A stretch of 64,000 nucleotides of DNA from NCBI GenBank assembly GCA_965223685.1, contig CBDCXG010000003.1:166362-230361 (forward strand), written 5' to 3'. Every line of letters starts with the position of its first letter. Position 1 is the stretch's first letter. This document shows, in pieces, positions 11,943 to 37,837 of the stretch. This DNA is from Nitrospirales bacterium. GTDB lineage: Bacteria; Nitrospirota; Nitrospiria; Nitrospirales; UBA8639. A program made the translations under genes and the position numbers. A model generated the notes under the pieces. It searched no databases, was not told the origin of the DNA, and saw nothing but the letters and a program-made list of their open reading frames with translations.

Positions 11943-12183
11943 AATGACAACTTTTGGCCAAAAGCTCTAGGTTTGAAGATCGACAGGACGCAGCCCAGGC
12001 CGTGTGAAAACTTCACTGCCATCTAAGGGTAGAAATACACTTCACAAGCAGCGTGACAAGCCACTGCTTAGCCCTGGATGCGATAACGTCTATCAGTGGG
12101 TGGATTGATTGGCCTCAACTGAAGACTTGAAAGGCTTAAAGGCAATTTCAGAAGGTCGTTTTCACACCGCCCATAGCGGACGT
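11943..12183. repeat. Palindromic gene-boundary repeat R2, interrupted by MITE-B
   Basis: 11955-11997 TGGCCAAAAGCTCTAGGTTTGAAGATCGACAGGACGCAGCCCA nearly matches 14635-14677; continues as TAGCGGACGT after the insert. Confidence 0.8.
11998..12171. mobile_element. MITE-B copy 1 (174 bp, IS1182-like ends)
   Basis: TIRs GGCCGTGTGAAAAC / GTTTTCACACCGCC; CA duplicated on both sides; alignable with 37660-37837. Confidence 0.8.
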
Positions 12184-12274
12184 GCAAGAAAGAACCCCCC
12201 CTTTTCTATGTAATAATTCCCATATTGGGAGTATATACGCGTAAAATGTCTGTATAAAAAGAAGTTAAACGAAT

Positions 12275-13078
12275 ATGTATCTGGTCAAACTCCTTAAAAA
12301 AAATTACCGGGCTCTAGCAATTTCTCATGGTAAGTTGAGAATTGGAACGATAAATTACTATCGAAAAATTGAAGACAACACACGGAAAGATTCCGAAGAG
12401 GGACTCGGTAACATTATTTGGGCTGGCAACAAATTACCTGCAGATCAATTCAATAAGATTTTCACTCCCTTCGACAACGTGTCACTGAAAGAGGGATGGG
12501 CAATAGAAAATAACGGAGCAAAAATCATCGGAGCATCTCCAAATTTCAACTTGTTCATTTTTTGTTACAGTTGGATTGATGATATTTCAGAAATCTCTAA
12601 AATATCCGAGAGTAAGGCAACTGACTATTTTTTTATAACCGACCTTCATCAGTTCGTAATTAAACTTACAAACGAGGTAAAAAGGATTGGGTTCGAAATG
12701 GTCCATCAATATGAACCTGAAAGAGCCGAAGAAATAATCAAAAGGACCACAGTTGTTGATACAACATATAAAGTATTCTATTCTAACGAATCCAAATCAC
12801 GAGTTGTAACTGAAGAAAATGTTGAGAATTTCGAAGTTAAGAAATTCCTGTCCTTTGATCTTTTTCAAAAAAACAAATCATATGAGTTTGAGCAAGAAGT
12901 TAGGACAGCATGGACTTTTGTTTACCAAGATGAAAAAGGGCGTAAACAGGCCCTACAATTACCCCATCCAGACCTTGATTACATTGATGTCGAAATTGGC
13001 GAATTACCAATTTCATTGGAACCTTCAATAAATAAATATCCAATCAAAACATCTTGTCCTAAACCAAAAAACGTCTAA
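12275..13078 (+). CDS. Hypothetical protein, AT-rich orphan
   Basis: 267-aa ORF, visibly lower GC than its neighbours, no motif recognised. Confidence 0.7.
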   Translation: MYLVKLLKKNYRALAISHGKLRIGTINYYRKIEDNTRKDSEEGLGNIIWAGNKLPADQFNKIFTPFDNVSLKEGWAIENNGAKIIGASPNFNLFIFCYSWIDDISEISKISESKATDYFFITDLHQFVIKLTNEVKRIGFEMVHQYEPERAEEIIKRTTVVDTTYKVFYSNESKSRVVTEENVENFEVKKFLSFDLFQKNKSYEFEQEVRTAWTFVYQDEKGRKQALQLPHPDLDYIDVEIGELPISLEPSINKYPIKTSCPKPKNV

Positions 13079-13116
13079 TGGCTGCTAAACGTAGATCTCC
13101 GCTCTGAGCCGTCATT
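13077..13116. repeat. Palindromic gene-boundary repeat R3
   Basis: AATGGCTGCT...GAGCCGTCATT imperfect inverted repeat overlapping the upstream stop codon; CTAGGATTGA motif follows. Confidence 0.55.
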
Positions 13117-13283
13117 GCATGGTCGGCGCTAGGATTGAGGCCCAACAGCACAGGCCGGAAACCGACCACCTTGGGGTAATCAAGATGCCATTCAACCTAT
13201 AACATACAGGGGACTCTGGCAAGCAAACCCTGACTTCAGATATTGGAAAAATTGGACATATTTTATTTGTTTGCAAGGGCTAT

Positions 13284-14081
13284 ATGTCTACATTTACCTG
13301 GGATGCTCGGGACTATGAGAAGCACTCACACGCCCAAAAGAAATGGGCAAGAGAGTTAATAGCGAAGATAGACCTTGAGAAGACTGAAGCTATTCTTGAT
13401 ATAGGCTGTGGGGATGGAAAAATAACCGCAGAGCTTGCGAATTGCGTTCCCTATGGCCGCGTTGTTGGCATCGATAGCTCCAAAGCAATGGTGGAACTTG
13501 CGAAGAATGTCTATACGGTTAGTAAGTATCCAAATCTTTCGTTCGTGAATATGGATGCTGTGCATTTGGCTTTTAAAGAGCAGTTTGACGTAGTGTTTTC
13601 GAATGCCGCCTTGCATTGGATCAAAGATCATGGCCCAATGCTAAAAGGGATCTTCAGAAGTCTGAAGTCCAGAGGTCGGGTGTTGTTACAAATGGGAGGC
13701 AAAGGGAACGCAGAAGGTGTCCTTTCTGTCTTACAAGAACTCCAGAAACAACTACGATGGCGTCAGTATTTTTCAGATTTCAAGGTTCCGTATGGTTTTC
13801 ATGGACCTCCCGAATACTCAGAATGGTTGCGTGAGGTGGGCTTTACTATTGAGCGGGTAGAGCTTATACCCAAAGATATGGAACATGAGGGCAAAGCAGG
13901 TTTGGCTGCATGGGTCCGAACAACGTGGTTGCCCTTTACGGAACAAGTACCACCAGAGCAACGAGATCAGTTCATTCATGAGGTGGTCGAGAAATATATT
14001 GACCGCGCACCACTTGATGCACATGGCAAAGCACATGTTGCCATGATGAGATTAGAAGTGGAGGCTTCTAAAAAACTATAA
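13284..14081 (+). CDS. Class I SAM-dependent methyltransferase (trans-aconitate methyltransferase-like)
   Basis: ILDIGCGDG motif I, VVGIDSS, FDVVFSNAALHW. Confidence 0.9.
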   Translation: MSTFTWDARDYEKHSHAQKKWARELIAKIDLEKTEAILDIGCGDGKITAELANCVPYGRVVGIDSSKAMVELAKNVYTVSKYPNLSFVNMDAVHLAFKEQFDVVFSNAALHWIKDHGPMLKGIFRSLKSRGRVLLQMGGKGNAEGVLSVLQELQKQLRWRQYFSDFKVPYGFHGPPEYSEWLREVGFTIERVELIPKDMEHEGKAGLAAWVRTTWLPFTEQVPPEQRDQFIHEVVEKYIDRAPLDAHGKAHVAMMRLEVEASKKL

Positions 14082-14101
14082 CTTTTGCATGTAGGTGAAT
14101 C

Positions 14102-14501
14102 TATGATTACTGCAGAAAGCGACACACGTGCATATCTCACACGCTTCTCCAATGGCACGTATGATGGATTCGCTGACACCATACACGAAAAAGGTGGAGG
14201 AGAGCGTGGCTTTCGCCCACACGACTTGCTGGAGGCTGCTCTGGCATCTTGTATCAATATGACGGTACGGATGTACGCCGATAAGCATCGCATTCGTTTA
14301 GAAGGAGTGACAACGAAAGTGTCATTGAATCGAGATACGGAGGGGGAAGCTCGTTTCGAGTATCACCTCGAGTTCCTTGGAGAACTTGAGCCGGATCAGA
14401 AAGAACGGTTGTTTAAGGTGGCGGAGCAATGCCCAGTTCGCAAAACACTTTCGCGTACCATTGCGTTTGGATATCTAAGTGAAGAGAAATGTGACATGTA
14501 A
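14102..14501 (+). CDS. OsmC/Ohr family protein
   Basis: GFRPHDLLEAALASC...RMYA and AEQCPVRKTL (two conserved Cys). ORF track opens at TTG 14085; the exact start is uncertain. Confidence 0.85.
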
Positions 14502-14620
14502 TCCAGTCTGAAATGACTCAGGTCGCCCTAGCCCAAATTGGGAAATGTAAGCGAAACGGCATTTTGTTGCGTCAAAAGTATATAAAAGGCCTAAACAGAC
14601 GAAAAGGCATGGAGATATAT

Positions 14621-14688
14621 AATGTGACCGTTCCTGGCCAAAAGTCCTAGGCTTGAAGATCGACAGGACGCGGCCCACAGCAAACATT
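14621..14688. repeat. Palindromic gene-boundary repeat R4 (uninterrupted)
   Basis: AATGTGACCGTTCCTGGCCAAAAG...GCGGCCCACAGCAAACATT; near-identical core to R2. Confidence 0.8.
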
Positions 14689-14737
14689 GGGAATCGAGTC
14701 TCATCCAAAAATTTTACGATGTCTTAAAGGAATGACT

Positions 14738-15283
14738 GTGAAAACAAGCGAACTAGTCTGGCAGGAGTACCATACGAAATTGGCTAGGTTCATACGAAGC
14801 CGGGTGACAGAGGAAGCAGTGGATGATCTGTTACAGGATGTGTTCATGAGGATTCACTCGCGCCTTGACTCCCTGAACGACGATGCGAAGCTGGAAAGTT
14901 GGTTGTATCAGATTACTCGCAATGCCATCACAGACTATTACCGTTCTCAGCGAAAGACAGAAGATCTTCACGAATGGATAGAACAACCTCCACCCGAAGA
15001 GGCCGACACGATTAGGAAGGAGCTGTCAGCCTGCCTGGAACCGATGATTCAGGAGTTGCCTGACAAATATCGCCACGCCATCCAACTGTCTGAACTTGAA
15101 AATAAGACGCAACAAGAAGTGGCTGAACAGGAAGGCATTTCATTATCCGGGGCAAAATCCCGCGTCCAACGAGGGCGAGCCATATTAAAAGACATTCTGG
15201 AAGACTGCTGTCAGTTTGAGCTGAACCAGCAGAATCAGATTCTTTCGTACGAGAAAAAGAAAGAGAAGGGGAAATATTGCTAG
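14738..15283 (+). CDS. sigZ: ECF sigma factor, SigZ family, with C-terminal Cys residues
   Basis: DDLLQDVF, WLYQITRNAITDYYR, region 4 SLSGAKSRVQRGR; ends EDCCQF...GKYC; GTG 14738 fits AAGGA spacing. Confidence 0.85.
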   Translation: MKTSELVWQEYHTKLARFIRSRVTEEAVDDLLQDVFMRIHSRLDSLNDDAKLESWLYQITRNAITDYYRSQRKTEDLHEWIEQPPPEEADTIRKELSACLEPMIQELPDKYRHAIQLSELENKTQQEVAEQEGISLSGAKSRVQRGRAILKDILEDCCQFELNQQNQILSYEKKKEKGKYC

Positions 15284-15294
15284 GTCGTCTTTTT

Positions 15295-15322
15295 TGCGTC
15301 TTTTTCCTCCCGTCTCCGTCTA
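15295..15322 (+). promoter_or_regulatory. Candidate ECF-type promoter for arsM
   Basis: TGCGTC followed by CGTC motifs about 40-60 nt upstream of the arsM start; CGTC is a common ECF -10 core. Assignment is inference. Confidence 0.35.
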
Positions 15323-15362
15323 TAGGGGTAACATGACTTTATTCACCCAACGGGAGGCTCAA

Positions 15363-16157
15363 ATGAACACTCAAGTAAAAAATGACAACATTCGTCAGAT
15401 CGTGCGTGAACGCTATGGCACCATTGCCGTATCTGACAATAACTCGTGTGCCACGAATTCATGTTGCCCGGGTGGCGATGCCAAGGCCACCTCAATGAAT
15501 CTGGGCTATTCGAGTGCTGATGTTAATCAAGTACCCGAGGGAGCCAATATGGGTTTGGGGTGCGGCAATCCCCGGGCCATCGCTTCCTTGAAAGTCGGGG
15601 AGACGGTCTTAGATTTAGGGAGTGGCGGGGGCTTTGATTGTTTTCTTGCCGTGAAGGAAGTGGGGGAAGACGGGACGGTAATTGGTGTGGATATGACCCC
15701 TGACATGGTGAGTAAAGCCAGAGCGAATGCCGACAAGGTAGGCTATACCAATGTGGAGTTTCGCCTTGGGGAAATAGAACATTTGCCTGTTGCCAATGGT
15801 GTGGTTGATGTCATTATTTCCAACTGCGTGATCAATCTGTCACCTGATAAAGCTAAGGTGTTTCAAGAAGCTTATCGGGTGTTGAAACCAGGCGGACGGT
15901 TGGCCATTTCAGATATCGTCGCGAGTGCTGAGCTACCGGAACCACAGAAAAACGATATGGCATTGTTCACGGGGTGTATGGCAGGCGCCTCATTCATCAC
16001 AGAGATTGAATCCATGCTGAAAGACGCTGGGTTTGAAGCAATCGACATCAAGCCGAAAAACAACAGTCAGGAATTTATCCGAAAATGGGCGCCAGATACC
16101 AAGATTGAGGACTATGTCGTATCCGCCTATATCGAGGCCATTAAGCCTGCCACTTAA
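15363..16157 (+). CDS. arsM: Arsenite S-adenosylmethionine methyltransferase
   Basis: SCC, LGCGNP, VLDLGSGGGFD, ISNCVINL, FTGCMAG; GGAGG RBS before ATG 15363. Confidence 0.9.
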   Translation: MNTQVKNDNIRQIVRERYGTIAVSDNNSCATNSCCPGGDAKATSMNLGYSSADVNQVPEGANMGLGCGNPRAIASLKVGETVLDLGSGGGFDCFLAVKEVGEDGTVIGVDMTPDMVSKARANADKVGYTNVEFRLGEIEHLPVANGVVDVIISNCVINLSPDKAKVFQEAYRVLKPGGRLAISDIVASAELPEPQKNDMALFTGCMAGASFITEIESMLKDAGFEAIDIKPKNNSQEFIRKWAPDTKIEDYVVSAYIEAIKPAT

Positions 16158-16233
16158 CAAGCATGTCTATTCGAGCAGAGCAAAGTGTCACGGCTTTGCT
16201 CTGCAGCTTGGAGCGGCCGTTTCCGAGAGGAGC

Positions 16234-16271
16234 GATGACCATTCTGGCCGAAAGTGACCAACGCGGACATT
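16234..16271. repeat. Palindromic gene-boundary repeat R5 (short form)
   Basis: GATGACCATTCTGGCCGAAAGTGACCAACGCGGACATT shares both ends with R4. Confidence 0.65.
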
Positions 16272-16329
16272 CAAAGATAAGACTCTTATCATGCCTAACC
16301 CTTATTAAGGCCACACCAGGAACGTTGAT

Positions 16330-16971
16330 ATGTTTCTCGTCAAATTGATACCTCCAAGGCTGCTCTCCAGACAAGCTAGAAAACCATCTGGTTGGTTTGG
16401 ACGTGTGGTGATGTCCCGAATTTTCAATAAGGGAAATGCTGAATTAAATCATTTCATCAAAGACCTCTTGGAACTGCAGGAACATGATACTGTTTTGGAG
16501 ATCGGATTTGGGCCAGGTTTATTATTAAGTCAAATGGCTCAAACCACCACGAAAGGCTTTGTGGAAGGCATTGATTTCTCAGAAGCCATGGTGGCTCAAG
16601 CCCAAAAAATTAACAAACACTATATTGCTCAGAAGAGAGTAAAAATTCAGAAGGGTCATTGTGACAACTTGCCATATGGCCCGGAGTCATTCGATAAAGT
16701 CTGCACGTCAAATACGATTTACTTTTGGGAAGACCCGAAGGCCATCTTCAATGAAATCTTTCGGGTGCTCAAACCAGAAGGTAAACTGGTGATCGGATTT
16801 AGAGATGCCGATCAAATGAAGACCCTCCCTCTCAGTAAGGAAGTATTCCATTTTTACACGATGAAGGACGTAAAAGGCTTCTTGACCCAAGCAGGATTTT
16901 TTCCTGTCCGGATTGAAAAAATGGAAGGCCAACCGTTGGTTTCTTATTGCGCCGTGGGTACAAAAGCCTAA
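16330..16971 (+). CDS. Class I SAM-dependent methyltransferase
   Basis: VLEIGFGPG motif I, GIDFSEAM, FDKVCTSNTIYFW. Confidence 0.9.
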   Translation: MFLVKLIPPRLLSRQARKPSGWFGRVVMSRIFNKGNAELNHFIKDLLELQEHDTVLEIGFGPGLLLSQMAQTTTKGFVEGIDFSEAMVAQAQKINKHYIAQKRVKIQKGHCDNLPYGPESFDKVCTSNTIYFWEDPKAIFNEIFRVLKPEGKLVIGFRDADQMKTLPLSKEVFHFYTMKDVKGFLTQAGFFPVRIEKMEGQPLVSYCAVGTKA

Positions 16972-16999
16972 AAAAATCACAACGCCGGCTCTCGACCCA

Positions 17000-17063
17000 G
17001 GCTGTGTGAAAACTCCTCAGCCAACTGATGGTAGAGGTCGACTTCAAAGGCAGCATGATCCGT
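17000..17063. mobile_element. MITE-B copy 2 (left part only, cut by IS630), inserted in repeat R6 (16981-16999)
   Basis: ...CTCGACCCA|GGCTGTGTGAAAAC...; internal sequence alignable to the other MITE-B copies up to the IS end. Confidence 0.75.
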
Positions 17064-17065
17064 TA

Positions 17066-17961
17066 TAGTCATTCCAAATAAGTTCCTGATGCTGTATACT
17101 GCTGGGCACTATGGCCTATAGCATCGATTTACGACAACGAGTGGTAAAGTTTGTTGCTGCTGGGGGCAGCAAGGCCGAAGCCGTTCGGCGTTTTCACGTC
17201 AGTATTTGGTGCGTCCACGATTGGTGTGGGCGAGCTGACTTAACCCCCAAGTATCCTCCAACCCGCCGACGCAAGTTAAATCGCGCGGCCTTGCGACGAC
17301 ATGTGACCCAGCACCCTGAGGCGACGCTCCAGGAGCGGGCTAGCCATTTCGGAGTCCGAATCAATGCAATCTGGTATGCACTCCGCCAGGAGCACATCAC
17401 TCGTAAAAAAAACTCTTCGGTACGCTGAACGGGATTCCACCCAGCGGGCCGCCTATCTTGCGCAACGGCGCCAGCTCCATCTGACCCAAGCCACCCCCCC
17501 CAGTGGTCTATCTCGATGAGAGCGGTTTTGAGCGCACAGCCTACCGCTCTCACGGATGGGCTTGCCGCGGCCAACGAGTGGCAGGGGAACGGAGTGGCCA
17601 GTCTCGTCCCCGCACCAGCTTGATCGCTGGGAAATGGGGCCAGCGCCTGCTAGCTCCCGTCCTCTTTGCAGGCAGCACGAATGCTGAGTGGTTCAATATC
17701 GGGCTCGAAGAGCATCTGTTTAAAGAGTTGGCTCCCCACTCGATCCTCATCATGGATAATGCCGCGTTTCATAAAACGGCGAAGCCCCGTGAGCTGATCG
17801 AACAAGCGGGGCACACGCTGCTGTTTCTGCCTCCGTACTCCCCGGATTTCAATCCGATTGAACAAGACTTTGCGACGATCAAGAAACGCTGGCAATATGC
17901 TTCGTCAGAGAAGTCGTTTGAAGAGATTCTCCGATTGTATGGAACTTAATTGGAATGACTA
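17066..17961 (+). mobile_element. IS630-family insertion sequence
   Basis: TIRs TAGTCATTCCAAATAAGTTCC / GGAACTTAATTGGAATGACTA, TA on both flanks; HTH ORF plus DDE ORF. Confidence 0.93.
17111..17949 (+). CDS. IS630 transposase, two ORFs joined by a probable -1 frameshift
   Basis: ORF A (MAYSIDLRQRVV, HTH) ends just after an A run at about 17404-17412; the -1 frame is open from there to VYLDESGF...LIMDNAAFH...LPPYSPDFNPIE. Confidence 0.9.
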
Positions 17962-17981
17962 TAATTGGAGAGCGACAGGCG

Positions 17982-18689
17982 CTAGTTTATCAGAGCCCCG
18001 CCTGTACTATAGATAATGGTTGCGCCAAGGATAATGGTCATGGTGCCTATACATCCTTGGAGACCGTTGTGGAACCACGTCAAGGAAGGAGAAGAATATC
18101 GAAACGGAAGGGCAATCACTAAAGAGAGTGCAGCCATGCCGGCTATGGACCCTAACCCAAATAGGACAACATAAAGGAGGCTTGTGAGAGGAGACAGTTG
18201 TGTTTGTAGCGTCAGAACAATGAGGGCAGCGGAGCCTGCCATCCCGTGCATGAGACCGACAAACAAAGCACGATAGGGAAAACCTTGCGGGTGATTGTGA
18301 TCATGCTTGGACAGCGTGTGCAGAGGTTCTCCTTCGTGGGAATGTGCATGAAAGTGTGGGGCTTTATCAGCATGTTGATGGACATGAAAGTGGATACGTT
18401 CTTTGATAAGTTTTCGAAACACGTCAATTCCTAACCCCACCAACATACAGCCAACCAACAATTCCAGCCACTGCGCCAACCGTTCAGGAATGATCGCCCC
18501 CCCGAGCAAGACGAGGGAACTGAACAACAAAAGGGTAAGCGTGTGTCCGACGCCCCATACCATACCCTGCCGGACCGAATGACTGACTGATCGACTGTTG
18601 GTCGCAAGCGTGGCCACCGCAGCCACGTGGTCGGCCTCAAGGGCATGCCGCATCCCAACTAAGAATCCGATCCCAAGAAGCATTAACAT
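17982..18689 (-). CDS. High-affinity nickel transporter, UreH/NiCoT-like
   Basis: GMRHALEADHVAAV signature, His-rich loop, GLMHGMAGS, multiple TM helices; last gene of the hyp operon. Confidence 0.85.
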   Translation of the reverse strand: MLMLLGIGFLVGMRHALEADHVAAVATLATNSRSVSHSVRQGMVWGVGHTLTLLLFSSLVLLGGAIIPERLAQWLELLVGCMLVGLGIDVFRKLIKERIHFHVHQHADKAPHFHAHSHEGEPLHTLSKHDHNHPQGFPYRALFVGLMHGMAGSAALIVLTLQTQLSPLTSLLYVVLFGLGSIAGMAALSLVIALPFRYSSPSLTWFHNGLQGCIGTMTIILGATIIYSTGGALIN

Positions 18690-19528
18690 CGGGCGAGGTC
18701 CTTATCGGGATTAGGCGTCATTTGCGATCGAATCCAGTCGTACCATTGTGGCATCCCTTCTCCTGTTGTCGCGGAAACCTGGAAGACCTGTATTTGTGGG
18801 TTCACCATTTTAGCACTATCCAAGCACTTCTGGACATTAAATGAAAGGTGCGGGAGCAAGTCGATTTTATTCAAGATCATGACCTGCGCCGATTGAAACA
18901 TGTGGGGATATTTCAATGGCTTGTCTTCCCCCTCTGTTGTGGAAAGAATGGCAACCTTGGCCTGTTCACCCAGATCAAAGAGCGCTGGACACACAAGATT
19001 TCCCACGTTTTCAATGAACACAAGTGAATGGGGCGGTGGGGCCAGCTCGTCTAATCCCCGGGCGAGCATATCCGCTTCAAGATGACAGCCGGCCCCGGTG
19101 TTGATCTGAACCACTCGACATCCGGTTTGCTGGATGCGTTCTGCATCATGCAGCGTCTCCTGATCTCCTTCAATCACTGAAATGGTTATCGCATCGCGCA
19201 AATGGCGAATGGTGTGTTCGAGAAGTGTCGTTTTGCCTGATCCAGGGGAACTGACTAAATTGAGCGCCAGAATATCTTTAGCCTGAAACCATCCTCGGTT
19301 CCGTTCCGCTAATCGATCATTCTTACTGAGAATGGCTTGTTCAAGGAGCACGGTGTGTTCATGGTCATGAGTGTGATGGTCGTCATGATGAGCATGAACG
19401 TGATCATGTTCGTCATGTGAGTCATGTGCGTGGGTATGCGGGTGACTAGTGACGGGATTCGTCTTCCCGGTCTCGAGATTGGTTACGCGAGGAGTCATCG
19501 TGTCAGAACATCCGCAGGTCGTACACAT
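18683..19528 (-). CDS. hypB: Hydrogenase nickel incorporation GTPase HypB
   Basis: CTTCGC N-terminal site, His-rich stretch, SSPGSGKT, CH, ENVGNLVCP, NKID. Confidence 0.97.
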   Translation of the reverse strand: MCTTCGCSDTMTPRVTNLETGKTNPVTSHPHTHAHDSHDEHDHVHAHHDDHHTHDHEHTVLLEQAILSKNDRLAERNRGWFQAKDILALNLVSSPGSGKTTLLEHTIRHLRDAITISVIEGDQETLHDAERIQQTGCRVVQINTGAGCHLEADMLARGLDELAPPPHSLVFIENVGNLVCPALFDLGEQAKVAILSTTEGEDKPLKYPHMFQSAQVMILNKIDLLPHLSFNVQKCLDSAKMVNPQIQVFQVSATTGEGMPQWYDWIRSQMTPNPDKDLARC

Positions 19529-19857
19529 TAGGCTTTCACCATTTGCTTAATGTTAAGCTCAGAACCCGTACATCGCGAAATATCATTCGAGCCGCATGGA
19601 CAGGGATCAAACATCTGTGTGAGAGTAAATTGGGCACCGCAGGCATGACATTCCCCAGTGCCAGGAGTTTCAATGATTTCTAGCGTCGCTCCCTCTGCGA
19701 CGGTTCCTTTGGTGACCAGATCAAAACAAAACCGAAGGGCATCTGGCAGGACGGCACTGAACTTTCCAATTTCCAAGGTCACCTGTGTGACCTTGGCGCC
19801 ATGAGCTTTTTCAGACACGATTGAGACAATGTTACGTGTTAAACTTAGCTCGTGCAT
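19528..19857 (-). CDS. hypA: Hydrogenase nickel metallochaperone HypA
   Basis: MHE N-terminus, CHAC...CPCG zinc site. Confidence 0.95.
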   Translation of the reverse strand: MHELSLTRNIVSIVSEKAHGAKVTQVTLEIGKFSAVLPDALRFCFDLVTKGTVAEGATLEIIETPGTGECHACGAQFTLTQMFDPCPCGSNDISRCTGSELNIKQMVKA

Positions 19858-22854: not shown

Positions 22855-22865
22855 GTTTCAATACC

Positions 22866-23056
22866 GGGTCTGTTGAAAAAAGCCGTCAGCGGCGTTCTCG
22901 CCATTTTTCCGTGCTCACGTAGTGCCAGTACGCTCCGCGCGCAAAAAGGGCTACGGCCTTGCTGAACGGACTTTTTTGAACAGACCCGAGGCCTCTGACA
23001 TGTTACGTCGCAGAGGCGAAATCTGGCTGTTGATATCATCAATATTCAACAGTCTC
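22866..23056. mobile_element. MITE-A copy 3 (191 bp)
   Basis: Ends GGGTCTGTTGAA / TTCAACAGTCTC; TSD ATACC (22861-22865, 23057-23061). Confidence 0.93.
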
Positions 23057-29426: not shown

Positions 29427-29453
29427 GGCGTTGTTGCTCCTCAATGTGATATT

Positions 29454-29863: not shown

Positions 29864-30367
29864 TGCCAGACTATGAACTCACCACTTTCGCCGAAGACGA
29901 CCTAAGAGGTATTGCCCGTTATACAATTGATACCTGGGGACTTAAACAAGCCAAGCGTTATGAAGCGTCACTTGCTGCTCGATTTCACAAAATTGCGCAA
30001 GGGGATGTCACACCAAGAACCTTTCTCTCCCATAGACCAGTCTTGCTCGTCACTCATTGTGAGCATCACTACATCTTCTATACTGGGAGTGTTGAATAAT
30101 GTGGATATCAAATGGCCACAATGCCCGGGAACACTGAGGATGTCAAAAGCCTCGGGCCTGTTCAAAAAAGTCCGTCCAGCAAGGCCACAGCCATTTTGAC
30201 GCGCGCAGCGTACTGGCATTACGTGAGCACGGGAAAATGGCGAGAACGCCGCTGGCGGCTTTTTTCAACAGGCCCATACTATCCGTGACACTCAGTGCCC
30301 CTTAATCATCGCGGTCTTTTATGAGCGTATGGATTTAATGCGACGTCTCAAAGACCGTCTGCCATAA
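29863..30367 (+). pseudogene. parE: ParE/RelE-family toxin split by MITE-A
   Basis: MPDYELTTFAEDDLRGIARYTIDTWG...CEHHYIFYT; removing the insert and one TSD restores IRDTQCPLIIAVFYERMDLMRRLKDRLP* (102 aa). Confidence 0.93.
30085..30275. mobile_element. MITE-A copy 4 (191 bp), inside parE
   Basis: Ends GGGAGTGTTGAA / TTCAACAGGCCC; TSD ATACT (30080-30084, 30276-30280). Confidence 0.95.
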
Positions 30368-30456
30368 GCACCGGTTACGTCCGTCAAAAACGGCTGTTGG
30401 ATCACGAAAGTCTGCCCTGAGTTGTTCGGCAAGCTCACAATGTACTGTTCGATGTA

Positions 30457-30557
30457 TCATCCTGAGCTCTGTCGAAGGATGGTTCGACGGGCTCACCATG
30501 ACCGCTATCACTCATCCCGAACCGTATGATTTATAATCCTGAGCTCCGTCGAAGGAT
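30457..30557. repeat. REP-like palindromic repeat family C (TCATCCTGAGCxxxGTCGAAGGATGGTTCGACxxGCTCACCATGA), with a partial second unit
   Basis: Units at 30457-30501 and 30536-30557; a reverse-complement copy lies at 31551-31616. Confidence 0.7.
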
Positions 30558-30602
30558 CACAATGAATCTGTGGAAGGATTCGTCCGGCGAGATCCGCTCA
30601 GA

Positions 30603-31442
30603 CTAAATTAAGGAAGTTTCGACATTGGAAATGTCCATAACCAAACCCGCTGCTGTTTCATCCCACAAAACAGGAACGAGACGGTCAAGTGCTTCATCAA
30701 TACCATGTTCACGAAAGAATTCTTGTGCATGGACGACGCGGTCGCCTTGGGCGTTTCTGATTTTTAGTAAGAGTCCACCGCTCCCTTCTTGGTGGACTGG
30801 CAAAATTAGAATCTGGTTGTCACGCTTGAGGAGTACGATGTGTTGAATATTCGGGAAATGCTTCTCGGAGATCGATGCATCTATATAGATATTGCCGTGA
30901 CAAATTTTGATCTGAAATGGGAGACCAGGTTCACACGCGTGTTGTGCTTCAGACTCAGATTCAGCCTGTTCTAACACTTGTACGCGAATATGTTCACACA
31001 CCGTTTCAATGGATTGGGCAACCTCTGGTGTCAACTCCAACCCTAGCGAGGTATCAGCAGCTTCGACTAGGTAGATCGTCACGTCTTTCGGAAATGCTTC
31101 TTTGAAAATTTGTTTTCCCGCATAGAGCGCATGGTCCCATCGGAAATCATGTAAGCTATAACTCGTCCCTGGAGGATTCGTGACTTCATCTCCCGTGAGC
31201 TTGAATATCGCTCCCGGGTCGGATCCACTAACACATGCGTCAACAATGATGAGTGAACGAGCCCCTCGAGCTTGAAACATGACGTCCATGCCACCGGTCC
31301 CCGCGTCAAAGACCTGGATATTCGGCTGTGGATGTACGGAAAAAAATGTTTGAAGACGTTGGGCAATCATCACGCCAACACCATCGTCACGTCGATTGAG
31401 ATTGCCACATCCAATGATCACATGCATCTCTACCACTTTCAA
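30603..31442 (-). CDS. Hydrogenase maturation endopeptidase (HupW/HybD family) with an extra ~110-aa C-terminal domain
   Basis: IIGCGNLNRRDDGVG, IIVDA, SLHDF metal ligands; extension FQIKICHGNIYID...GGLLLKIRNAQGDRVVHAQEFF. Confidence 0.9.
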   Translation of the reverse strand: MKVVEMHVIIGCGNLNRRDDGVGVMIAQRLQTFFSVHPQPNIQVFDAGTGGMDVMFQARGARSLIIVDACVSGSDPGAIFKLTGDEVTNPPGTSYSLHDFRWDHALYAGKQIFKEAFPKDVTIYLVEAADTSLGLELTPEVAQSIETVCEHIRVQVLEQAESESEAQHACEPGLPFQIKICHGNIYIDASISEKHFPNIQHIVLLKRDNQILILPVHQEGSGGLLLKIRNAQGDRVVHAQEFFREHGIDEALDRLVPVLWDETAAGLVMDISNVETSLI

Positions 31443-31461
31443 TCGTCAGAATACTGATGTT

Positions 31462-31726
31462 GGGTCTGTTGAAAAAAGCCGCCAGCGGCGTTCTCTAAAC
31501 CAGTAAGAAGTGAAAAGTGAGAAGTAAGGAGCACGAGGAAAACCTCAGGACCCTTCGGATGAGTGATAACGATCATGGTGAGCTTGTCGAACCATCCTTC
31601 GACAGGCTCAGGATGATAGGTTGAACAGCTCAGAACATGTTTTTTTTGAACAGACCCAACGCTATTGATCTCCAAGGGCCTCCTGGCCAAATATGGCCCT
31701 TGATATCTTCATTATTCAACACTCTG
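31462..31726. mobile_element. MITE-A copy 5, composite (265 bp) carrying repeat family C internally
   Basis: Ends GGGTCTGTTGAA / TTCAACACTCTG; TSD ATGTT (31457-31461, 31727-31731); central part replaced. Confidence 0.85.
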
Positions 31727-31825
31727 ATGTTCCTCCTCTTTGTCGGGGGAGAACCAAGGATGGAATAGAGGCTTGCATTCTTTCACCAGTTGCAGAATAA
31801 ATTGGGCATGCGCTCTCACGACGAT

Positions 31826-31863
31826 TCTACCTCCCCTAGCCTTTCCTTACAAAGGAGGGGGAC
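31826..31863. repeat. Short palindromic repeat family D
   Basis: TCTACCTCCCCTAGCCTTTCCTTACAAAGGAGGGGG; second copy at 50899-50934. Confidence 0.65.
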
Positions 31864-31911
31864 GGTTCACCCTTATCTTTTCGACTATCTATATACAATG
31901 GAAGGGTCGCT

Positions 31912-32238
31912 CTAAATTCGCCACAGTCGGCAGGACCAATCTTTCTCGACGGGAAGAGCTAATTCTGGCAGTTCACAGTATCGACGATGAACAACATAAT
32001 ACATGCAGGTCTCACAGGATTGAACTAAGTCATCTTCCATGCCTGGCGGTTGATACGGTTGTAGCGTAAAACCGGCTATATTGATTTTCTCTTTGACATG
32101 GTCAGGACCATGAGATTGAAGCCGGTGAATGAGGTCGTTGACAGCTTCGCTGGTATAGGCTCGAGGTTCGACCTCAGTTTGGAGACCGGATTCAAGGAGC
32201 TGGGTCACCTGCTTGCGAAGCCGCTCGTCATTCTCCAT
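31912..32238 (-). CDS. Small HiPIP-like Fe-S protein, paralogue 2
   Basis: CETCMYYVVHRRYCELPELALPVEKDWSCRLWRI four-Cys motif. Confidence 0.8.
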   Translation of the reverse strand: MENDERLRKQVTQLLESGLQTEVEPRAYTSEAVNDLIHRLQSHGPDHVKEKINIAGFTLQPYQPPGMEDDLVQSCETCMYYVVHRRYCELPELALPVEKDWSCRLWRI

Positions 32239-32341
32239 GGATAAGGCAGGTCTGTTAGAGGCAAGACCAAAATTTCAGAATGCTATTGTCGTGGCCGTGC
32301 GCGATTTTCCTCTTGCGAAGTTAAATATCTCGCTGTGAAAA

Positions 32342-32656
32342 CTAGATTCTCCACAATCGACAATACCAATCAGGTTCTACTGGCACAGCCAATTCAGGTA
32401 AGTCACACCATTTTCTGTGCACGAGGTAATACATACATTCTAAACACCGCATTTGATCGGGCCCATACGGTTTATCGGCAAATCCTGATACGACGAGTTT
32501 ACCTTCTAAGTCATCCGGATCGAGCTTTCGTAGTTCATCGAGCAGTTTGGCGAATTCGACATGGGTTTCAGGAAACGGTTCGGTTTGTGTCTTGAGCCCT
32601 TTGGCTAACATGTCTCCAATCTGTTGTCGAAGTCTGTCCTCTTCCTCACTACGCAT
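32342..32656 (-). CDS. Small HiPIP-like Fe-S protein, paralogue 1
   Basis: CLECMYYLVHRKWCDLPELAVPVEPDWYCRLWRI four-Cys motif. Confidence 0.8.
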   Translation of the reverse strand: MRSEEEDRLRQQIGDMLAKGLKTQTEPFPETHVEFAKLLDELRKLDPDDLEGKLVVSGFADKPYGPDQMRCLECMYYLVHRKWCDLPELAVPVEPDWYCRLWRI

Positions 32657-32775
32657 AGATGATGATCCTTACGCTCTGCGGAAGGAGAGGAAATACTCAA
32701 GTGTCGTACTCCTACCCGTGTGAGCTCAAACGTAACGTTACTCCCTGTCAATCCTGGGTTGCCAGTACATCCGAC

Positions 32776-34371
32776 TTACCCAATTCGGAAACGTGATAAT
32801 TCCTTCCCATTCTTGGCATCGTGAGCATGTACCGTGCAGACCAAACACGAATCAAAGGAGCGAGCCACATGTCCAACTTCAACCGGGTCCGTCGGATCAG
32901 CGATGGGAGCTCCAATGAGCGCTTCTTCAATAGGACCGCGTCCACCTTCCGCATCACGCGGCCCCACGTTCCACGTTGTCGGAGCAATGATCTGGTAGTT
33001 TTTAATTTTTCCGCCTTTGACATCGATCCAATGACACAACGCGCCGCGAATGGCTTCCGTGGCACCCCATCCCTGGCCATCGATCTCCTGCGGTTTCACA
33101 TACCATGGCTCAGCCAGTTTGAATTCACGTAAACACCGTTCGGCTTGGCGATACAGTTTGATGGTTTCATGCATCCGCGCGAGCTGCCGCAGGTGCAGGC
33201 TGGGTCTGCCCATGTTTTTGTACACGTCTAAAATGAATCCATCAGTATGTTGCCAGTCTTCTCCATGACTTCCGCCAGCTATTAACTGGCGGGAAAATGG
33301 ACCGGCTTCGAGCCGGCCGACTTGAACATGGCGCACGGCCGTAGCCCAGGAGTAGGTGCCGTTGTAATCGGTGTTATTGTTCTGAATCGCTTTAGTCGTT
33401 CGGTCAAACGGATGAACGTCGGCTCCGCCTTCGTCATACCAGGAGTGCGTGGTGTTCTCTCGTAAAAGATCTTGACTCATGAGACTGTGCGTGTCCGTCG
33501 CGCCGTCATAGACTCCGCTTTTCATAATCACTGCGGCTTGACGGCCATCGATCGTGGGTTTTTGATACTTATCTTCATGAGGCAGATACCCCCACGAGAC
33601 GTATTTCCCAAGCCCGCCCCCATATTGATGAAGCCCAATATCCATACCCATCCGCCAATAAAACCCTAAATCGGAATTGGCATGTGCAGGGCTTTCATCT
33701 AACCACGCCATAAAATCGTTATAGGTTTTGATTTCTTCGTACCGTTCTAGGGAGCAGCCTAACCACAACGGTTCCAGCCAATTTGTTTTGTAGTACTCCA
33801 GAATGGACCAAGCTCGGGTGATATCTGAAAGAGTGGGCGCACACATCACCCCCCCAGGAACCATATACGATGAGTGCGGCCATTGGCCGCCCAAGAGCGC
33901 ATAGATTTCCACGGGCTTGCCTGACACCGTCACGCCTATTTCGTAGGATGTTCCTGTGAAGGGTGCAAACCGTTTGCATGCCTCTTCGTAGTATTGATTG
34001 TTTTTATACTTTTTGTTAGTCAGGTCGATAGCATACAGCCCATAGAAATACCGGGGCTGGCTTTGAATGCTTTCCACAAGCTGTCCCAGGTTGCGTGCTA
34101 AAATCGCATTGCGAGGAACCGTGGTTTGCCATGCAGTATCCAGAGCCCACGCCGCGCACGTTAAGTGTGAAGCCCCACAAATGCCACAGGCACGAGGCGT
34201 CACAACCAAACCCGCTTGAGGGTCTTTATCACGCAGAATGATTTCAAAGCCACGAAACAGTTCGGCTTGGGTCCAAGCATTCGTGACGACTCCATTATCT
34301 ATATCAACCCGAACATCCAAATCTCCTTCTACACGTCCTACGGGAGAAATATCTAAGGTTTGTACGGTCAT
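32776..34371 (-). CDS. hupL: [NiFe]-hydrogenase large subunit, group 2a
   Basis: L1 TPRACGICGASH, L2 RSFDSCLVCTVH followed by a cleavable tail; GRVEGDL N-terminus as in cyanobacterial-type uptake hydrogenases. Confidence 0.95.
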   Translation of the reverse strand: MTVQTLDISPVGRVEGDLDVRVDIDNGVVTNAWTQAELFRGFEIILRDKDPQAGLVVTPRACGICGASHLTCAAWALDTAWQTTVPRNAILARNLGQLVESIQSQPRYFYGLYAIDLTNKKYKNNQYYEEACKRFAPFTGTSYEIGVTVSGKPVEIYALLGGQWPHSSYMVPGGVMCAPTLSDITRAWSILEYYKTNWLEPLWLGCSLERYEEIKTYNDFMAWLDESPAHANSDLGFYWRMGMDIGLHQYGGGLGKYVSWGYLPHEDKYQKPTIDGRQAAVIMKSGVYDGATDTHSLMSQDLLRENTTHSWYDEGGADVHPFDRTTKAIQNNNTDYNGTYSWATAVRHVQVGRLEAGPFSRQLIAGGSHGEDWQHTDGFILDVYKNMGRPSLHLRQLARMHETIKLYRQAERCLREFKLAEPWYVKPQEIDGQGWGATEAIRGALCHWIDVKGGKIKNYQIIAPTTWNVGPRDAEGGRGPIEEALIGAPIADPTDPVEVGHVARSFDSCLVCTVHAHDAKNGKELSRFRIG

Positions 34372-34415
34372 GGTCTGTCTCCTCTTGTTCGAAAAACTTT
34401 ATTCGTATTGTTGTC

Positions 34416-35378
34416 TTAGACCACAAAAATGTCGTCCTCTGCCCAAGCAGGTGCAGCATTTTTCGCGGCTCCGGTCAGTGCAATATACCCTTTCTTCTCT
34501 ACACCTAGTGGCAGATCTTTGGGAATGCCCATAACCGTTTGAGTTTTAAACACCGTGCCGGGCGCCAGATCAAAGAATGGAAATTCTGGTTCCGTGCAGC
34601 CTAAGCAAGGCATGCCAGCACGCGTTTTAGACGACTGCCGGTTCCACAGAATACGATTACATGGAGAATGGGTCATGGGGCCACGGCATCCGAGATCGTA
34701 GTACAGACAGCCTTTCCGTTGACCAAACTCTGTCGCGGAAACCTTGTAAGCAAAGTGCATGTTTCGCGTGCACCCTGTTTGCGTAAAACTTTGAAAGAAG
34801 GTTTTCGGACGCTGGAATTCGTCTAAAGAGATATCACCACCTCGTCCGGTCGCGACGGCGACCACAATTTGGGTAATCCAATCAGGGTGCGCCGGACAAC
34901 CTGGAACATTAATCACTGGGAGACCGGCTTTCGAACGAAAGTCTTTCCCCAAAAAACCGCCATGGTTTCGTTTAAGAAACTGGAGTCCTTGCGATTCACT
35001 CGGATTCGGTGCGGTAGCAGGAATTCCTCCCCACGTCGCACAATCTCCAATGGCCACGACATAAGAAGCCGCTCCACACAACTCCTGGACCCATTGTTTC
35101 ATGGGACGTCCGGCAAACCGATTCCATTCTCCTGTCCCATTTGGGGCATTCACGACCGTTCCTTCCCACACAAAGATATCCAATGGAATGGCTCCTGACA
35201 CACAGTCTCGTAGGATCTTTTGAAGGTTGTCCCCTAATTCAACGCCCAGTGAGGGATGCCAAAGCACGTTGATCCCAAAATCTGTGACTAAGTCACAGGC
35301 ACTGGGTTCTTCTGCGTTAAGAAACGACATGGTGTTCCCGGAACACGCGCCACCTTGAAGCCACAGTAAATTCGCCAT
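34416..35378 (-). CDS. hupS: [NiFe]-hydrogenase small subunit, group 2a, no Tat signal
   Basis: MANLLWLQGGACSGNTMSFLN (CxxN proximal site), GDCA, GCPAHP, QTGCTRN, CLYYDLGCRGP, CLGC. Confidence 0.95.
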   Translation of the reverse strand: MANLLWLQGGACSGNTMSFLNAEEPSACDLVTDFGINVLWHPSLGVELGDNLQKILRDCVSGAIPLDIFVWEGTVVNAPNGTGEWNRFAGRPMKQWVQELCGAASYVVAIGDCATWGGIPATAPNPSESQGLQFLKRNHGGFLGKDFRSKAGLPVINVPGCPAHPDWITQIVVAVATGRGGDISLDEFQRPKTFFQSFTQTGCTRNMHFAYKVSATEFGQRKGCLYYDLGCRGPMTHSPCNRILWNRQSSKTRAGMPCLGCTEPEFPFFDLAPGTVFKTQTVMGIPKDLPLGVEKKGYIALTGAAKNAAPAWAEDDIFVV

Positions 35379-35490
35379 AAGTGTTCCCCTTTACGATCGA
35401 TAGAAAGAATATTGGTGAATCACATTCATGGTGTAAGTGTAATGACAGTTAGCGTTAGTCGATTCACAAATTGTCTGTCTTCGAAAAGAA

Positions 35491-35506
35491 GGCAAAACCA
35501 GTGCCA
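35491..35506 (-). promoter_or_regulatory. Sigma54 (-24/-12) promoter of hupSL
   Basis: Minus strand TGGCACTGGTTTTGCC matches TGGCAC-N5-TTGC, about 110 nt upstream of the hupS start. Confidence 0.8.
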
Positions 35507-35583
35507 CCTTGTCCTTCCTAACAATACCCAGAGGTGCTTTCATCATTTTGCTAAAGAAATATGGAGTTTTTAATGAACGTGTC

Positions 35584-35610
35584 ATTCGTGTTCGTTGAAA
35601 GAACACGAAT
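35584..35610. promoter_or_regulatory. Perfect dyad, candidate upstream activator sequence
   Basis: ATTCGTGTTC-N7-GAACACGAAT, about 80-100 nt upstream of the -24 box, no U-tract on either strand. Confidence 0.5.
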
Positions 35611-35811
35611 GGGATGGAAGGTAAGCTTACAGTTTCAACGGAAGAGAGAAGAAGAAGTGCAAATCAAGTATGCAAGGTGTTTCTGGAAAATGGAGCAGTC
35701 ACGTCCTTGCTTTTCAATGCGACTCGGTAATCAATCGATCGAAATTGTGAAAAGGGAAAGAGCGATGATGAGATAGTTATCCGGTGGGATTACAGTCTCT
35801 TCCTTGAACGT

Positions 35812-36081
35812 TTATCCATGCCGGTTTCCACATACAGGGCATTCAGCTTCAAGCGTGTAGCCATACCAAATGCCTTCGCACCGACTACACCAGTGGCCAT
35901 TTGTTTGTTCCTCAGTCAAGGATAACTGTTTGGCCAAAGGGGTAATCCCGAGGTTTTTCGGTTGCGGTCTGGAGTAGGACTGAGAAGGTGTTGCGAGATG
36001 AAAGAGACTCGACTCTTGAACATGACGCTTCAAAATGTTGGTTGCTTCTTCATCTCGATCTCTGGCGTCATCCATTAACAA
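35812..36081 (-). CDS. Small protein with C-terminal zinc-ribbon motif
   Basis: HWCSRCEGIWYGYTLEAECPVCGNRHG; starts 4 nt after the activator stop. Confidence 0.7.
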   Translation of the reverse strand: MLMDDARDRDEEATNILKRHVQESSLFHLATPSQSYSRPQPKNLGITPLAKQLSLTEEQTNGHWCSRCEGIWYGYTLEAECPVCGNRHG

Positions 36082-36085
36082 GTTC

Positions 36086-37564
36086 TCACGATTCTGCAGC
36101 GATTAACTGATAACGCTTAATCTTGCTAGCCAATCCGACTCGAGACAAACCCAGTTCTTTGGCTGCCTTGCTTTGATTCCATCGGTGGCGGGTGAGACAT
36201 TGCGTCACGACTAATGCTTCCAATCGTTCAACTTTCTCTTTGAGGGTGCTTGCTTCATTGATATAAGCCTGATCTTGGTTACGAGGGTCCGGCGGCAAAG
36301 CCTGAGCGATTTCCGGGGACAAGTGGTCGACTGACAAGAATTCGCCATTGTTTGTTAACGACACCATCCGACGAATTTCTGTTTCCAACTCCCGAACATT
36401 GCCTGGAAAAGAATAAGCTTGAAAGTGGCGCATGACTTGGACCGAGATACCGGCAATTTTTCGATTGAGAGCTTCGGCATATTTTCGAGAAAGATATTCT
36501 GCTAAGACTGGAATATCTTCCACGCGTTCTCGCAGTGGGGGGAGGTTGATCTCAAATCCACGCAGGCGATAGTACAAGTCTTGTCGAAACTTTCCGGCTT
36601 CCACTAATTTTTTGAGTGAATGGTTAGACGCGACTAATATCCGAACATCAGCATATTGGACCTTTTCCGAACCTAATGGCTTGATTTCTCCTTCTTGGAG
36701 GAACCGTAAGAGGCTGACTTGAAACGAGGGAGAGACTTCAGAGATTTCATCGAGAAAGACGGTGCCACCATCGGCTGCTGAAAAAAGTCCAAGCCGGTCG
36801 CTCACCGCACCGGTAAAGGCCCCGCGTTTGTGCCCGAAGAGTTCAGACTGTAGTAAATCATCCGGCAACGCTCCACAATTTTGTACCAAAAACGGATAGT
36901 CTTTTCGTACACTAAACCCATGGATGGCTTTGGCCATAAGTTCTTTTCCCGTGCCGGTATCTCCCTGAATCAGGACTGGAAGGTCGGTCGGAGCGGCCTT
37001 CTTAGCAAGGTTGCAGACTTCTAACATGGCATCACTGGCAAAGACCAACTTGTCAAACTCGTAACTCTCCCGTAGCAGTTTTACCATGTGATCTTTCGGG
37101 CTACGAAAGGCATTGTCTGAAAATTTCAGTTCCCGACTCAGAATACGATGACGACGGGCTAACTCCCGGCTTTCTAAGGCCCGGTTCACTAACAGCCACA
37201 AATGCCATGGAGGACATGGCTTGGGGATCACTTGATAGACCGCTCCCGCTTTGAAGATTTCCATGACCTTTTTATCATCTCGCGATTCACTCAGAAATAT
37301 ACGAATTGTATCTGGATAATGAACGCGTGCTTCCCTAAAAAAACTCTCTCCGTTTGTATCCGAAACAGCTTCATCAAATAATATGGCATCAATCTCGTTC
37401 TGCCCTAACAGTTCGTTTGCTTCTTTGCCTGTCCCCGCGGTGAGAACTCTATAATCTTTGGAAAGATAGCTGAAGAGGGACTTGCGATTTTTCGCGTTTC
37501 CGTCAACAAGGAGAAGGGTTTCTTCTTTCTTCTCTGGCTTACTTTGCATAAACATCCCTTTCAA
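36086..37564 (-). CDS. Sigma54-dependent enhancer-binding response regulator, HoxA/HupR-like (REC-AAA+-HTH)
   Basis: GDTGTGKE Walker A, ELFGHKRGAFTGA, FLDEI Walker B, FRQDLYYRL, Fis-type HTH; adjacent to hupSL. Confidence 0.9.
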   Translation of the reverse strand: MKGMFMQSKPEKKEETLLLVDGNAKNRKSLFSYLSKDYRVLTAGTGKEANELLGQNEIDAILFDEAVSDTNGESFFREARVHYPDTIRIFLSESRDDKKVMEIFKAGAVYQVIPKPCPPWHLWLLVNRALESRELARRHRILSRELKFSDNAFRSPKDHMVKLLRESYEFDKLVFASDAMLEVCNLAKKAAPTDLPVLIQGDTGTGKELMAKAIHGFSVRKDYPFLVQNCGALPDDLLQSELFGHKRGAFTGAVSDRLGLFSAADGGTVFLDEISEVSPSFQVSLLRFLQEGEIKPLGSEKVQYADVRILVASNHSLKKLVEAGKFRQDLYYRLRGFEINLPPLRERVEDIPVLAEYLSRKYAEALNRKIAGISVQVMRHFQAYSFPGNVRELETEIRRMVSLTNNGEFLSVDHLSPEIAQALPPDPRNQDQAYINEASTLKEKVERLEALVVTQCLTRHRWNQSKAAKELGLSRVGLASKIKRYQLIAAES

Positions 37565-37659
37565 AATGAAAAGAAAGCTTACACATTTATAAAGAATTTC
37601 ACAAGGGTGACATAAAATAAGGGGAGTTCATGGTGATTTGGTGGTCCGCTCCTGGCCCA

Positions 37660-37837
37660 GGCTGTGTGAAAACACCACCGCTGTCTGACGGTAGCAGTGG
37701 ACTTCAAATGCAGTGTGACATGCCATTGATTAGCCGTAGATCCGAAAACGCCCTTTTAGGAGATGACTGGCGCTACCTGAAAACTTGATAGGCTTAAAGA
37801 TGATTTAAAAAAGCCATTTTTAGGTTTCCACACAGCC
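37660..37837. mobile_element. MITE-B copy 3 (178 bp), inserted in repeat R7
   Basis: TIRs GGCTGTGTGAAAAC / GTTTCCACACAGCC; flanks rejoin to GGTCCGCTCCTGGCCCA-AAGCGGATAC. Confidence 0.82.

Follow-up and report, generated by a model that had tools for sequence, protein, structure and literature searches.

Small repeats in a Nitrospirales genome as putative derivatives of an IS1182-type insertion sequence that enters the centre of a dispersed palindrome

A 64,000-bp stretch of a Nitrospirales genome (the window; C3:166362-230361 of a 4.09-Mb assembly, labelled G000 in the following) holds three copies of a small repeat, all three with the tetranucleotide CCCA immediately before their left end, and this raises the question of what these repeats are, by what enzyme they may have been moved, and what kind of site they occupy. 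An interpretation made from the letters of the window without database searches (the sequence-only reading) had described them as MITEs (miniature transposable elements with inverted repeats) that insert at CCCA within a palindrome and are parasites of putative cassette sites. We propose that the repeats are MITEs of an insertion sequence (IS) of the IS1182 family and that its transposase recognizes a palindrome of about 28 bp and inserts at the central GRYC, an interpretation that we hold to be very probable.

An IS1182-type partner for the small repeats

With up to two mismatches, the end sequence GGCYGTGTGAAAAC is found five times in the window (0.88 matches expected), at positions 11998, 12171 (minus strand), 17000, 37660, and 37837 (minus strand), and these matches represent two complete copies, given as 174 and 178 bp in the sequence-only reading, and one 5′ fragment. 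A scan of the whole genome for such ends returned five complete MITEs of 174 to 178 bp in addition to the truncated copy, a solo end at C2:449037, and three elements of 1,668 to 1,671 bp (C3:485787-487457, C3:1585187-1586857, and C3:1983358-1985025), each of which encodes a protein of about 477 amino acids. This transposase reaches 460.3 bits against the IS1182 model of NCBIfam (NF033551; cutoff, 270 bits), covers positions 2 to 487 of the 488 in the model, and has the Pfam domains PF05598 (DUF772), PF01609 (DDE_Tnp_1), and PF13751 (DDE_Tnp_1_6), all above cutoff. Thus, the IS1182-type ends suspected before are borne out, and the autonomous copy that had been called for as a check is present three times. 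Members of the IS1182 family have a single open reading frame (ORF), a length of about 1.3 to 1.9 kb, terminal inverted repeats, and short direct repeats. The MITEs, in turn, are small (174 to 180 bp) and noncoding, and their inverted repeats match those of the IS in the same genome, with which they have the terminal 16 to 18 nt in common and no further similarity. By these features, the three repeats of the window appear to be MITEs of the IS1182-family element present in the same genome. A hairpin over the whole length of the MITE was considered and rejected, because pairing is found at the ends only (z = −2.0).

The IS itself may still be active: its first two long copies, which lie at different sites, are identical at 1,670 of 1,671 positions (99.94%); the third is 80% identical to both. 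Its ends were found in 13 of 24 other genomes of the same genus, and other genera of the order gave no more than a chance-level match. Within the genus, the elements fall into size classes of about 1.66 to 1.78 kb, about 178 bp, and about 135 bp, and the autonomous ones measure 1,661 to 1,775 bp and have the ends CAGGCTGTGTGAAAAC and a 4-bp repeat.

Element boundaries and the palindromic target

The comparison of empty and filled paralogous sites places the start of the element 2 nt before the earlier delimitation, with terminal CA and TG as bases of the element. A paralogous pair in the sister genome G015 has the empty site ATGTCCGCTTGG-GGTC-GGGAACCGACCT and, 870 bp away, the filled site ATGTCCCCTTTG-GGTC-CA[IS]TG-GGTC-GGGAACCGACCT. 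The element thus reads CAGGCTGTGTGAAAAC...GTTTTCACACAGCCTG, with a 4-bp target duplication GRYC, and the terminal inverted repeat common to the MITEs and the IS is CAGGCTGTGTGAAAAC(TC), 16 to 18 bp long. Genome-wide, the bases ahead of the ends are G-R-Y-C followed by CA (or GA). Of 92 distinct half-sites of the genus, most have CCCA directly ahead of GGCTGTG (variants, TCCA and CCGA), and in the 36 paired elements of the genus, GGCTGTG is bordered by CA (or GA) and, further out, by G-R-Y-C, with the mirror image at the other end. Perfect 4-bp repeats lie directly outside CA...TG in 20 of these 36 pairs, and asymmetric tetramers are direct (GGTC/GGTC, GACC/GACC) in 11 cases and inverted in 2 to 3, which argues for a target duplication and not for an extended inverted repeat. 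Hence, the sequence-only reading was right that CCCA precedes all three copies, but CCCA is not the target as such: it is made up of the last two duplicated bases and the terminal CA of the element.

With these boundaries, copy 1 of the window (11996-12171, plus strand, 176 bp) has an intact left end, CAGGCCGTGTGAAAAC, and a right end, ...GTTTTCACACCGCC, that lacks the terminal TG and the second copy of the duplication. The left half of its target (11980-11995) consists of a degenerate arm and the duplicated tetramer AGCC (11992-11995), and the right arm, CATAGCGGACGT (12172-12183), fits the arm consensus NRAAGCGGACAT. Copy 3 (37658-37837, plus strand, 180 bp) likewise has an intact left end, CAGGCTGTGTGAAAAC, and a right end, ...GGTTTCCACACAGCC, without TG and the second GGCC; it sits between the arm TGGTCCGCTCCT with the tetramer GGCC (37642-37657) and the right arm CAAAGCGGATAC (37838-37849). 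Copy 2 (16998-17065, plus strand) is a 68-bp 5′ fragment that follows the arm ACGCCGGCTCTC and the tetramer GACC (16982-16997) and is truncated by an IS630-family element of 896 bp (17066-17961, plus strand; ends, TAGTCATTCC.../...GGAATGACTA; TA duplication). The latter has a degenerate transposase in two ORFs with the domains HTH_Tnp_IS630 and DDE_3, and beyond it, the remainder of copy 2 is absent. In the window, therefore, the left tetramer is all that remains of the duplication in copies 1 and 3, and copy 2 has no right end. The identity between copies 1 and 3 is 71%, and that to other copies in the genome is 62 to 72%; because of this divergence, the copies of the window are old, in line with the old, repeated targeting proposed before. 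The fragment of copy 2 is 83 to 88% identical to three other copies in the genome.

The defect at the right ends of copies 1 and 3 amounts to 6 nt, the terminal TG plus the second copy of the duplication: where other copies read ...CACAGCC-TG-GGCC-CAAAGCGG, these two have ...CACAGCC joined directly to CAAAGCGG. Two further elements in G010 have the same 6-nt loss, one of them at the opposite MITE end, and a close relative of the subfamily of copy 3 in G013 has both ends intact. In the junction GGCC-CA-GGC, GGC (GCC on the other strand) is repeated at a spacing of 6 nt, and therefore, the losses may be read as secondary, recurrent slippage deletions between these repeats. Copies 1 and 3, each without one terminal dinucleotide, are probably immobile.

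The target around these elements is a 28-bp palindrome, ATGTCCGCTTYN-GRYC-NRAAGCGGACAT, with the insertion at its centre. The arm consensus extends over 10 to 12 nt per side, (AT)GTCSGCTYYN / NRRAGCSGAC(AT), and in a logo of the 92 half-sites, each arm contributes about 6 bits and GRYC 4.7 bits, or about 17 bits for the consensus overall. In leave-one-out scoring, the reconstructed occupied sites mostly reach 17 to 31 bits. The best unoccupied position in all of G000 reaches 17.4 bits, and there is no excess of high-scoring unoccupied sites over a reversed-sequence control; therefore, the target sites are not chance occurrences but belong to a repeat family. No landing sites were found inside the MITEs or the IS, where scores stay below 8 bits. 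The family is strongly site-specific for the palindrome, and the flank logo that had been suggested as a check indeed gave nonrandom flanks.

The same behaviour is seen outside the order. Relatives of the transposase with 59 to 88% identity occur in Nitrospirales, Nitrosomonas, many Gamma- and Alphaproteobacteria, Nitrospina, Bacteroidota, Kiritimatiellae, and Gemmatimonadota. A perfect 4-bp duplication flanks 24 of 28 complete IS that come from beyond Nitrospirales, and asymmetric tetramers are direct in 14 cases and inverted in none. With a matrix derived from the genus only, the target sites of these IS have a median score of 16.3 bits, compared to a maximum of 12.8 bits in 15,786 random 28-mers. 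Target choice is thus a trait of the whole clade, as the IS of other phyla go to this site and duplicate its centre in like manner. At three loci (L094, L129, and L134), insertions stand in tandem and share one GGCC.

Empty versions of the site, the absence of which had been named as a reason to give up the proposal, were found in sister genomes, the G015 pair included. The pattern GTCSGCTNNNGRYCNNNAGCSGAC (up to two mismatches) has 51 matches in the genomes of the genus versus 12 in the control, some of them in genomes without a match to the ends. The empty sites form clusters with a spacing of 0.6 to 2.8 kb and unrelated accessory genes in between (FMN reductase, HAD hydrolase, nuclease, methyltransferases, and OsmC). 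In the window, an unoccupied, degenerate copy of the target, TCGACAGGACGCGGCCCACAGCAAACAT (14660-14687; 12.9 bits), is paralogous to the site of copy 1. In this MITE-free paralogue (14635-14687), the left 43 nt have 91% identity to the surroundings of copy 1 and the right half is similar, which is consistent with the earlier claim that excision of copy 1 regenerates the repeat type. The 43-bp stretch concerned (11955-11997 versus 14635-14677) ends in the left half of the degenerate target site, and therefore, the decayed palindromes lie within a somewhat larger duplicated context. A second unoccupied, half-decayed target-like site, GTGACCGCTTCTGGCCGAACTCTGCCGA, lies at 39986-40013 (15.8 bits). 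In G007, the right arm of copy 3 (GACC-CAAAGCGGATAC) is found without a MITE upstream of the orthologous gene, and the homology between G000 and G007 is limited to this arm and to the gene itself, at a distance of about 100 nt.

One stretch of 40 kb in G015 (C3:866000-906000; L031 and L032) contains four IS copies, four MITEs, and 14 empty palindromes of 18 to 26 bits, some of them as tandem pairs at distances of about 26 to 60 bp. The stretch has the look of a hotspot or an island built around the palindromes.

In our model, the 477-amino-acid DDE transposase would recognize the palindrome of about 28 bp, ATGTCCGCTTYN-GRYC-NRAAGCGGACAT, as a duplex or as an extruded hairpin, and would cut the two strands on either side of the central GRYC, with a stagger of 4 bp. 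The element ends would then be joined there, and gap repair would duplicate GRYC. The MITEs would be moved in trans by the same transposase.

Several observations weigh against this model. The left arm of copy 1 is degenerate, that is, a poor site, and an IS in G004 (L045) sits in a site that scores −5 bits despite its perfect GGCC duplication. Four of about 72 ends lack the 6 nt comprising TG and the duplication, which could reflect an alternative mode of joining and not a later deletion. Furthermore, a strict empty-site pattern and the position matrix found only decayed empty members in G000. An orthologous, fully empty site was found for neither copy 3 nor six other insertions of G000 (one half-site in G007), the flanks of the G000 insertions being variable regions in which conservation otherwise does not extend from one side of the junction to the other. 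Metagenomes, searched for exact matches to the site of copy 3 in its empty form, gave none. From the insertions in poor sites, it follows that the arms help but are not obligatory.

Two other explanations of the arms have to be weighed against recognition of the palindrome. The arms could be the outer part of a long terminal inverted repeat of about 34 bp that is carried along by an element without target specificity. This would account for the inverted arms at both ends of nearly every copy, for the lack of a good empty site in G000, and for the one arm pair shared by three of the five IS copies in G015; indeed, the G000 result at first favoured arms that travel with the element, an idea that was overturned by the empty sites in sister genomes. 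These are contiguous palindromes, which lie side by side with filled paralogues in G015, and some of the genomes sampled in other phyla have 17 to 64 copies of the palindrome but hardly any match to the IS ends, or none. Furthermore, a direct 4-bp repeat separates the arms from CA...TG (asymmetric tetramers, 25 direct versus 2 to 3 inverted), and the two near-identical (99.94%) IS copies of G000 have different arms. Because of these different arms and the duplication inside the arms, the arms are not part of the element. We regard the long inverted repeat as already contradicted and give it next to no chance.

Alternatively, the transposase might attack any hairpin or cruciform, and the consensus would only reflect the commonest hairpins. 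There is a precedent: IS1272 and TnSha1 of staphylococci, which belong to the IS1182 family as well, insert into hairpins without a primary-sequence consensus and delete them, and their authors cite a review for IS1182 members that target palindromes (PMC4923244, PMC5678879). Pathway c of the published model involves loop duplication only (PMC5678879). A hairpin with another stem (TCCCTT/AAGGGA) at the insertion site 826766 of G000 and the few sites with poor matrix scores would fit such a choice by structure. The likeness to our case extends from the transposase family to the targets, which are inverted repeats or hairpins, often just downstream of genes. However, IS1272 has no consensus and no duplication, and the hairpin is deleted or replaced, whereas here, 28 bp are conserved, both arms remain in place, and the 4-bp centre (the loop) is doubled and not lost; stem-loop-replacing transposition of the IS1272 type is not what we find. 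In addition, the same arms surround the IS in Nitrospirota, Proteobacteria, Nitrospinota, and other phyla, as judged with a matrix from one genus, and base conservation reaches up to 1.2 bits at single arm positions. Targeting by structure only is therefore very unlikely in our estimate, and the transposase itself probably reads the sequence of the arms.

The palindrome outside the genus and the cassette question

The strict palindrome ATGTCCGCTNNNGRYCNNNAGCGGACAT, for which about 0.3 chance matches are expected by our own estimate in a sequence collection of 596 Gb, is present there at at least 120 loci. Among the matches listed are Alphaproteobacteria (Pseudolabrys, Xanthobacteraceae, and Hyphomicrobiales), Gammaproteobacteria (Lysobacter, Dyella, Pseudoxanthomonas, and Luteimonas), a betaproteobacterium, Acidobacteriota, Verrucomicrobiota, Chloroflexota, and Flavobacteriales. 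Ten genomes of other phyla that were sampled (G041 to G050) have 2 to 64 copies each and no control matches, and in nine of these ten palindrome-bearing genomes, there was no or one match to the IS ends. The positions are intergenic. Because the palindrome is multicopy in genomes with no or one IS-end match, it is an independent, widespread intergenic repeat that is exploited by the IS clade and is not a product of the IS.

Several phyla have the palindrome, in the form ATGTCCGCT-N10-AGCGGACAT (loci L170 to L289), as a repeat dispersed between genes. Hairpin doublets of it with different loops are frequent in Alphaproteobacteria (TTGGGTCATT, TTACCCCCGAA, and ATTGGCACTT). Translated, it reads MSALGQKRT, MSAFDPKRT, or MSALPPKADI, peptides that we take to be frequent spurious ORF starts in Bradyrhizobiaceae annotations. 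Rfam has no family for the palindrome, and literature searches with its DNA or peptide strings gave nothing relevant and no name. The only genes that recur beside it at the 120 listed loci are paralogous ABC substrate-binding genes and spurious ORFs. A RAYT (repetitive extragenic palindrome [REP]-associated tyrosine transposase) was considered as the spreader of the palindrome and rejected, because the RAYT/Y1 gene (PF01797) is absent from four of five palindrome-rich genomes outside the genus.

Might the palindrome be the recombination site of an integron-like cassette system, with the IS and its MITEs as dedicated parasites? The spacing of 0.6 to 2.8 kb between unrelated accessory genes in the genus would fit, as would the G015 stretch with its 14 empty sites and eight elements and the homology between G000 and G007 at copy 3, confined to one arm and the nearby gene. 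Furthermore, the site may be divided into 11-6-11, which is how sites of tyrosine recombinases are laid out. The enzymes and motifs speak against it. None of 10 genomes of the genus has an integron integrase (TIGR02249) above cutoff, tyrosine recombinases are not consistently near the palindrome arrays of the genus, and no recombinase recurs near the 120 listed loci from other phyla. The recombinase of the window itself is XerC. The cassette site attC of integrons has R″/R′ cores (RYYYAAC...GTTRRRY) and a length of 57 to 141 bp; no such cores were found in 31 aligned empty sites, in which the conserved unit is 28 bp and the flanks have no conserved cores. The palindrome of Alphaproteobacteria, with its frequent hairpin doublets, resembles an ordinary dispersed intergenic repeat. 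Finally, G000 has a separate candidate for the chromosomal dif site, ATGTCGCATAAGAAATATTATGTTAAGT (C3:1774463-1774490, minus strand), the sole such site in the genome, with 2 mismatches to the dif consensus. A cassette function is unlikely by this evidence. Of the earlier description as a site-specific parasite of putative cassette sites, the site specificity stands; the cassette site is not supported, given that neither an integron integrase nor attC cores nor a recurrent recombinase was found.

In a wider version of this idea, ATGTCCGCT-N10-AGCGGACAT would be an undescribed cross-phylum repeat, maybe a recombination or mobility site that bounds modules of accessory genes, and the IS1182 clade would be a homing parasite that follows it across phyla. 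We consider this just as doubtful; if true, the strict 4-bp central cut of the IS would mark the crossover region of a new cassette-type system.

Other repeats in the genomes

An IS630-like copy at C2:447495-449039, 79% identical to the element at 17066-17961, lies about 630 bp from the solo IS1182-type end at C2:449037, which suggests that a second IS1182-type element was truncated in the same way. To the left of the MITE at C3:1123722 lies the 3′ end of another multicopy IS (C3:1123469-1123685); its copies at C3:1199149, C2:446628, and C2:392312 are 93 to 95% identical, and it ends about 35 nt before the centre of the target. Another repeat family, with units of about 190 bp, has nine or more copies or fragments in the window (8866-9070, 30084-30275, 62458-62649, and 63811-64000; inverted, 10503-10549, 11441-11632, 22862-23053, 31458-31721, and 41903-42094), presumably the first MITE of the sequence-only reading. 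A further repeat, ...TTGCCGAAACAAAAGGAGCTCGGCTGCCGGGCCGAAACCCGGCA..., often paired with CGGCAAAAGGACCCAAAACCATT, has more than 10 copies on C2 and C3 in a loose pattern search (for example, C2:1442675-1442718, C2:1716741-1716784, and C3:136605). In G013, 72 matches to the Y1 transposase domain of IS200/IS605, mostly of equal score, point to a large recent burst of one IS200-type element.

Related systems and significance

Site-specific insertion inside dispersed extragenic palindromic repeats, which spares genes, is known from IS1397 and ISKpn1 (IS3 family) and from ISPpu9 and ISPpu10. These elements belong to other transposase families and use other repeat families. The target described here is a short, multicopy intergenic palindrome like REP, but it is not of the GTAG type and has no RAYT partner in the four genomes mentioned above. 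The IS1111-attC elements (IS110/IS1111 family), to which the window repeats had been likened, have a DEDD transposase, neither terminal inverted repeats nor a duplication, and an orientation-specific insertion into attC. The analogy holds for the behaviour, as in both cases a mobile element seeks out a palindromic site that recurs between accessory genes. It fails for the enzyme class, the duplication, and the target: here, the transposase is of the DDE type (IS1182), the element has 16-bp inverted repeats and a 4-bp duplication, its insertion is not orientation-specific, and the target is not attC.

Closest by description are two IS1182 systems. ISPse1 of Paracoccus has 1,653 bp, 16-bp inverted repeats, and a 4-bp repeat (PMC3281130), and MITEPye1 and ISPye18 have IS1182-type ends and 4-bp repeats, MITEPye1 being intergenic and sharing only its ends with its IS (PMC11578231). 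They are IS1182 elements of about 1.65 kb with 16- to 18-bp inverted repeats and 4-bp direct repeats, and in the parts of these reports that were considered, a palindrome-specific target is described for neither.

In sum, palindrome-targeting IS1182 members and IS1182-derived MITEs have already been published. For the 28-bp palindromic repeat, conserved across distant phyla, we found no published description. What this locus adds is a sharply defined case of a DDE transposon clade that would read a long palindrome and cut at its centre. Homing of this kind, which spares genes, would explain the persistence of the family in compact genomes and may be of some interest for targeted insertion tools.

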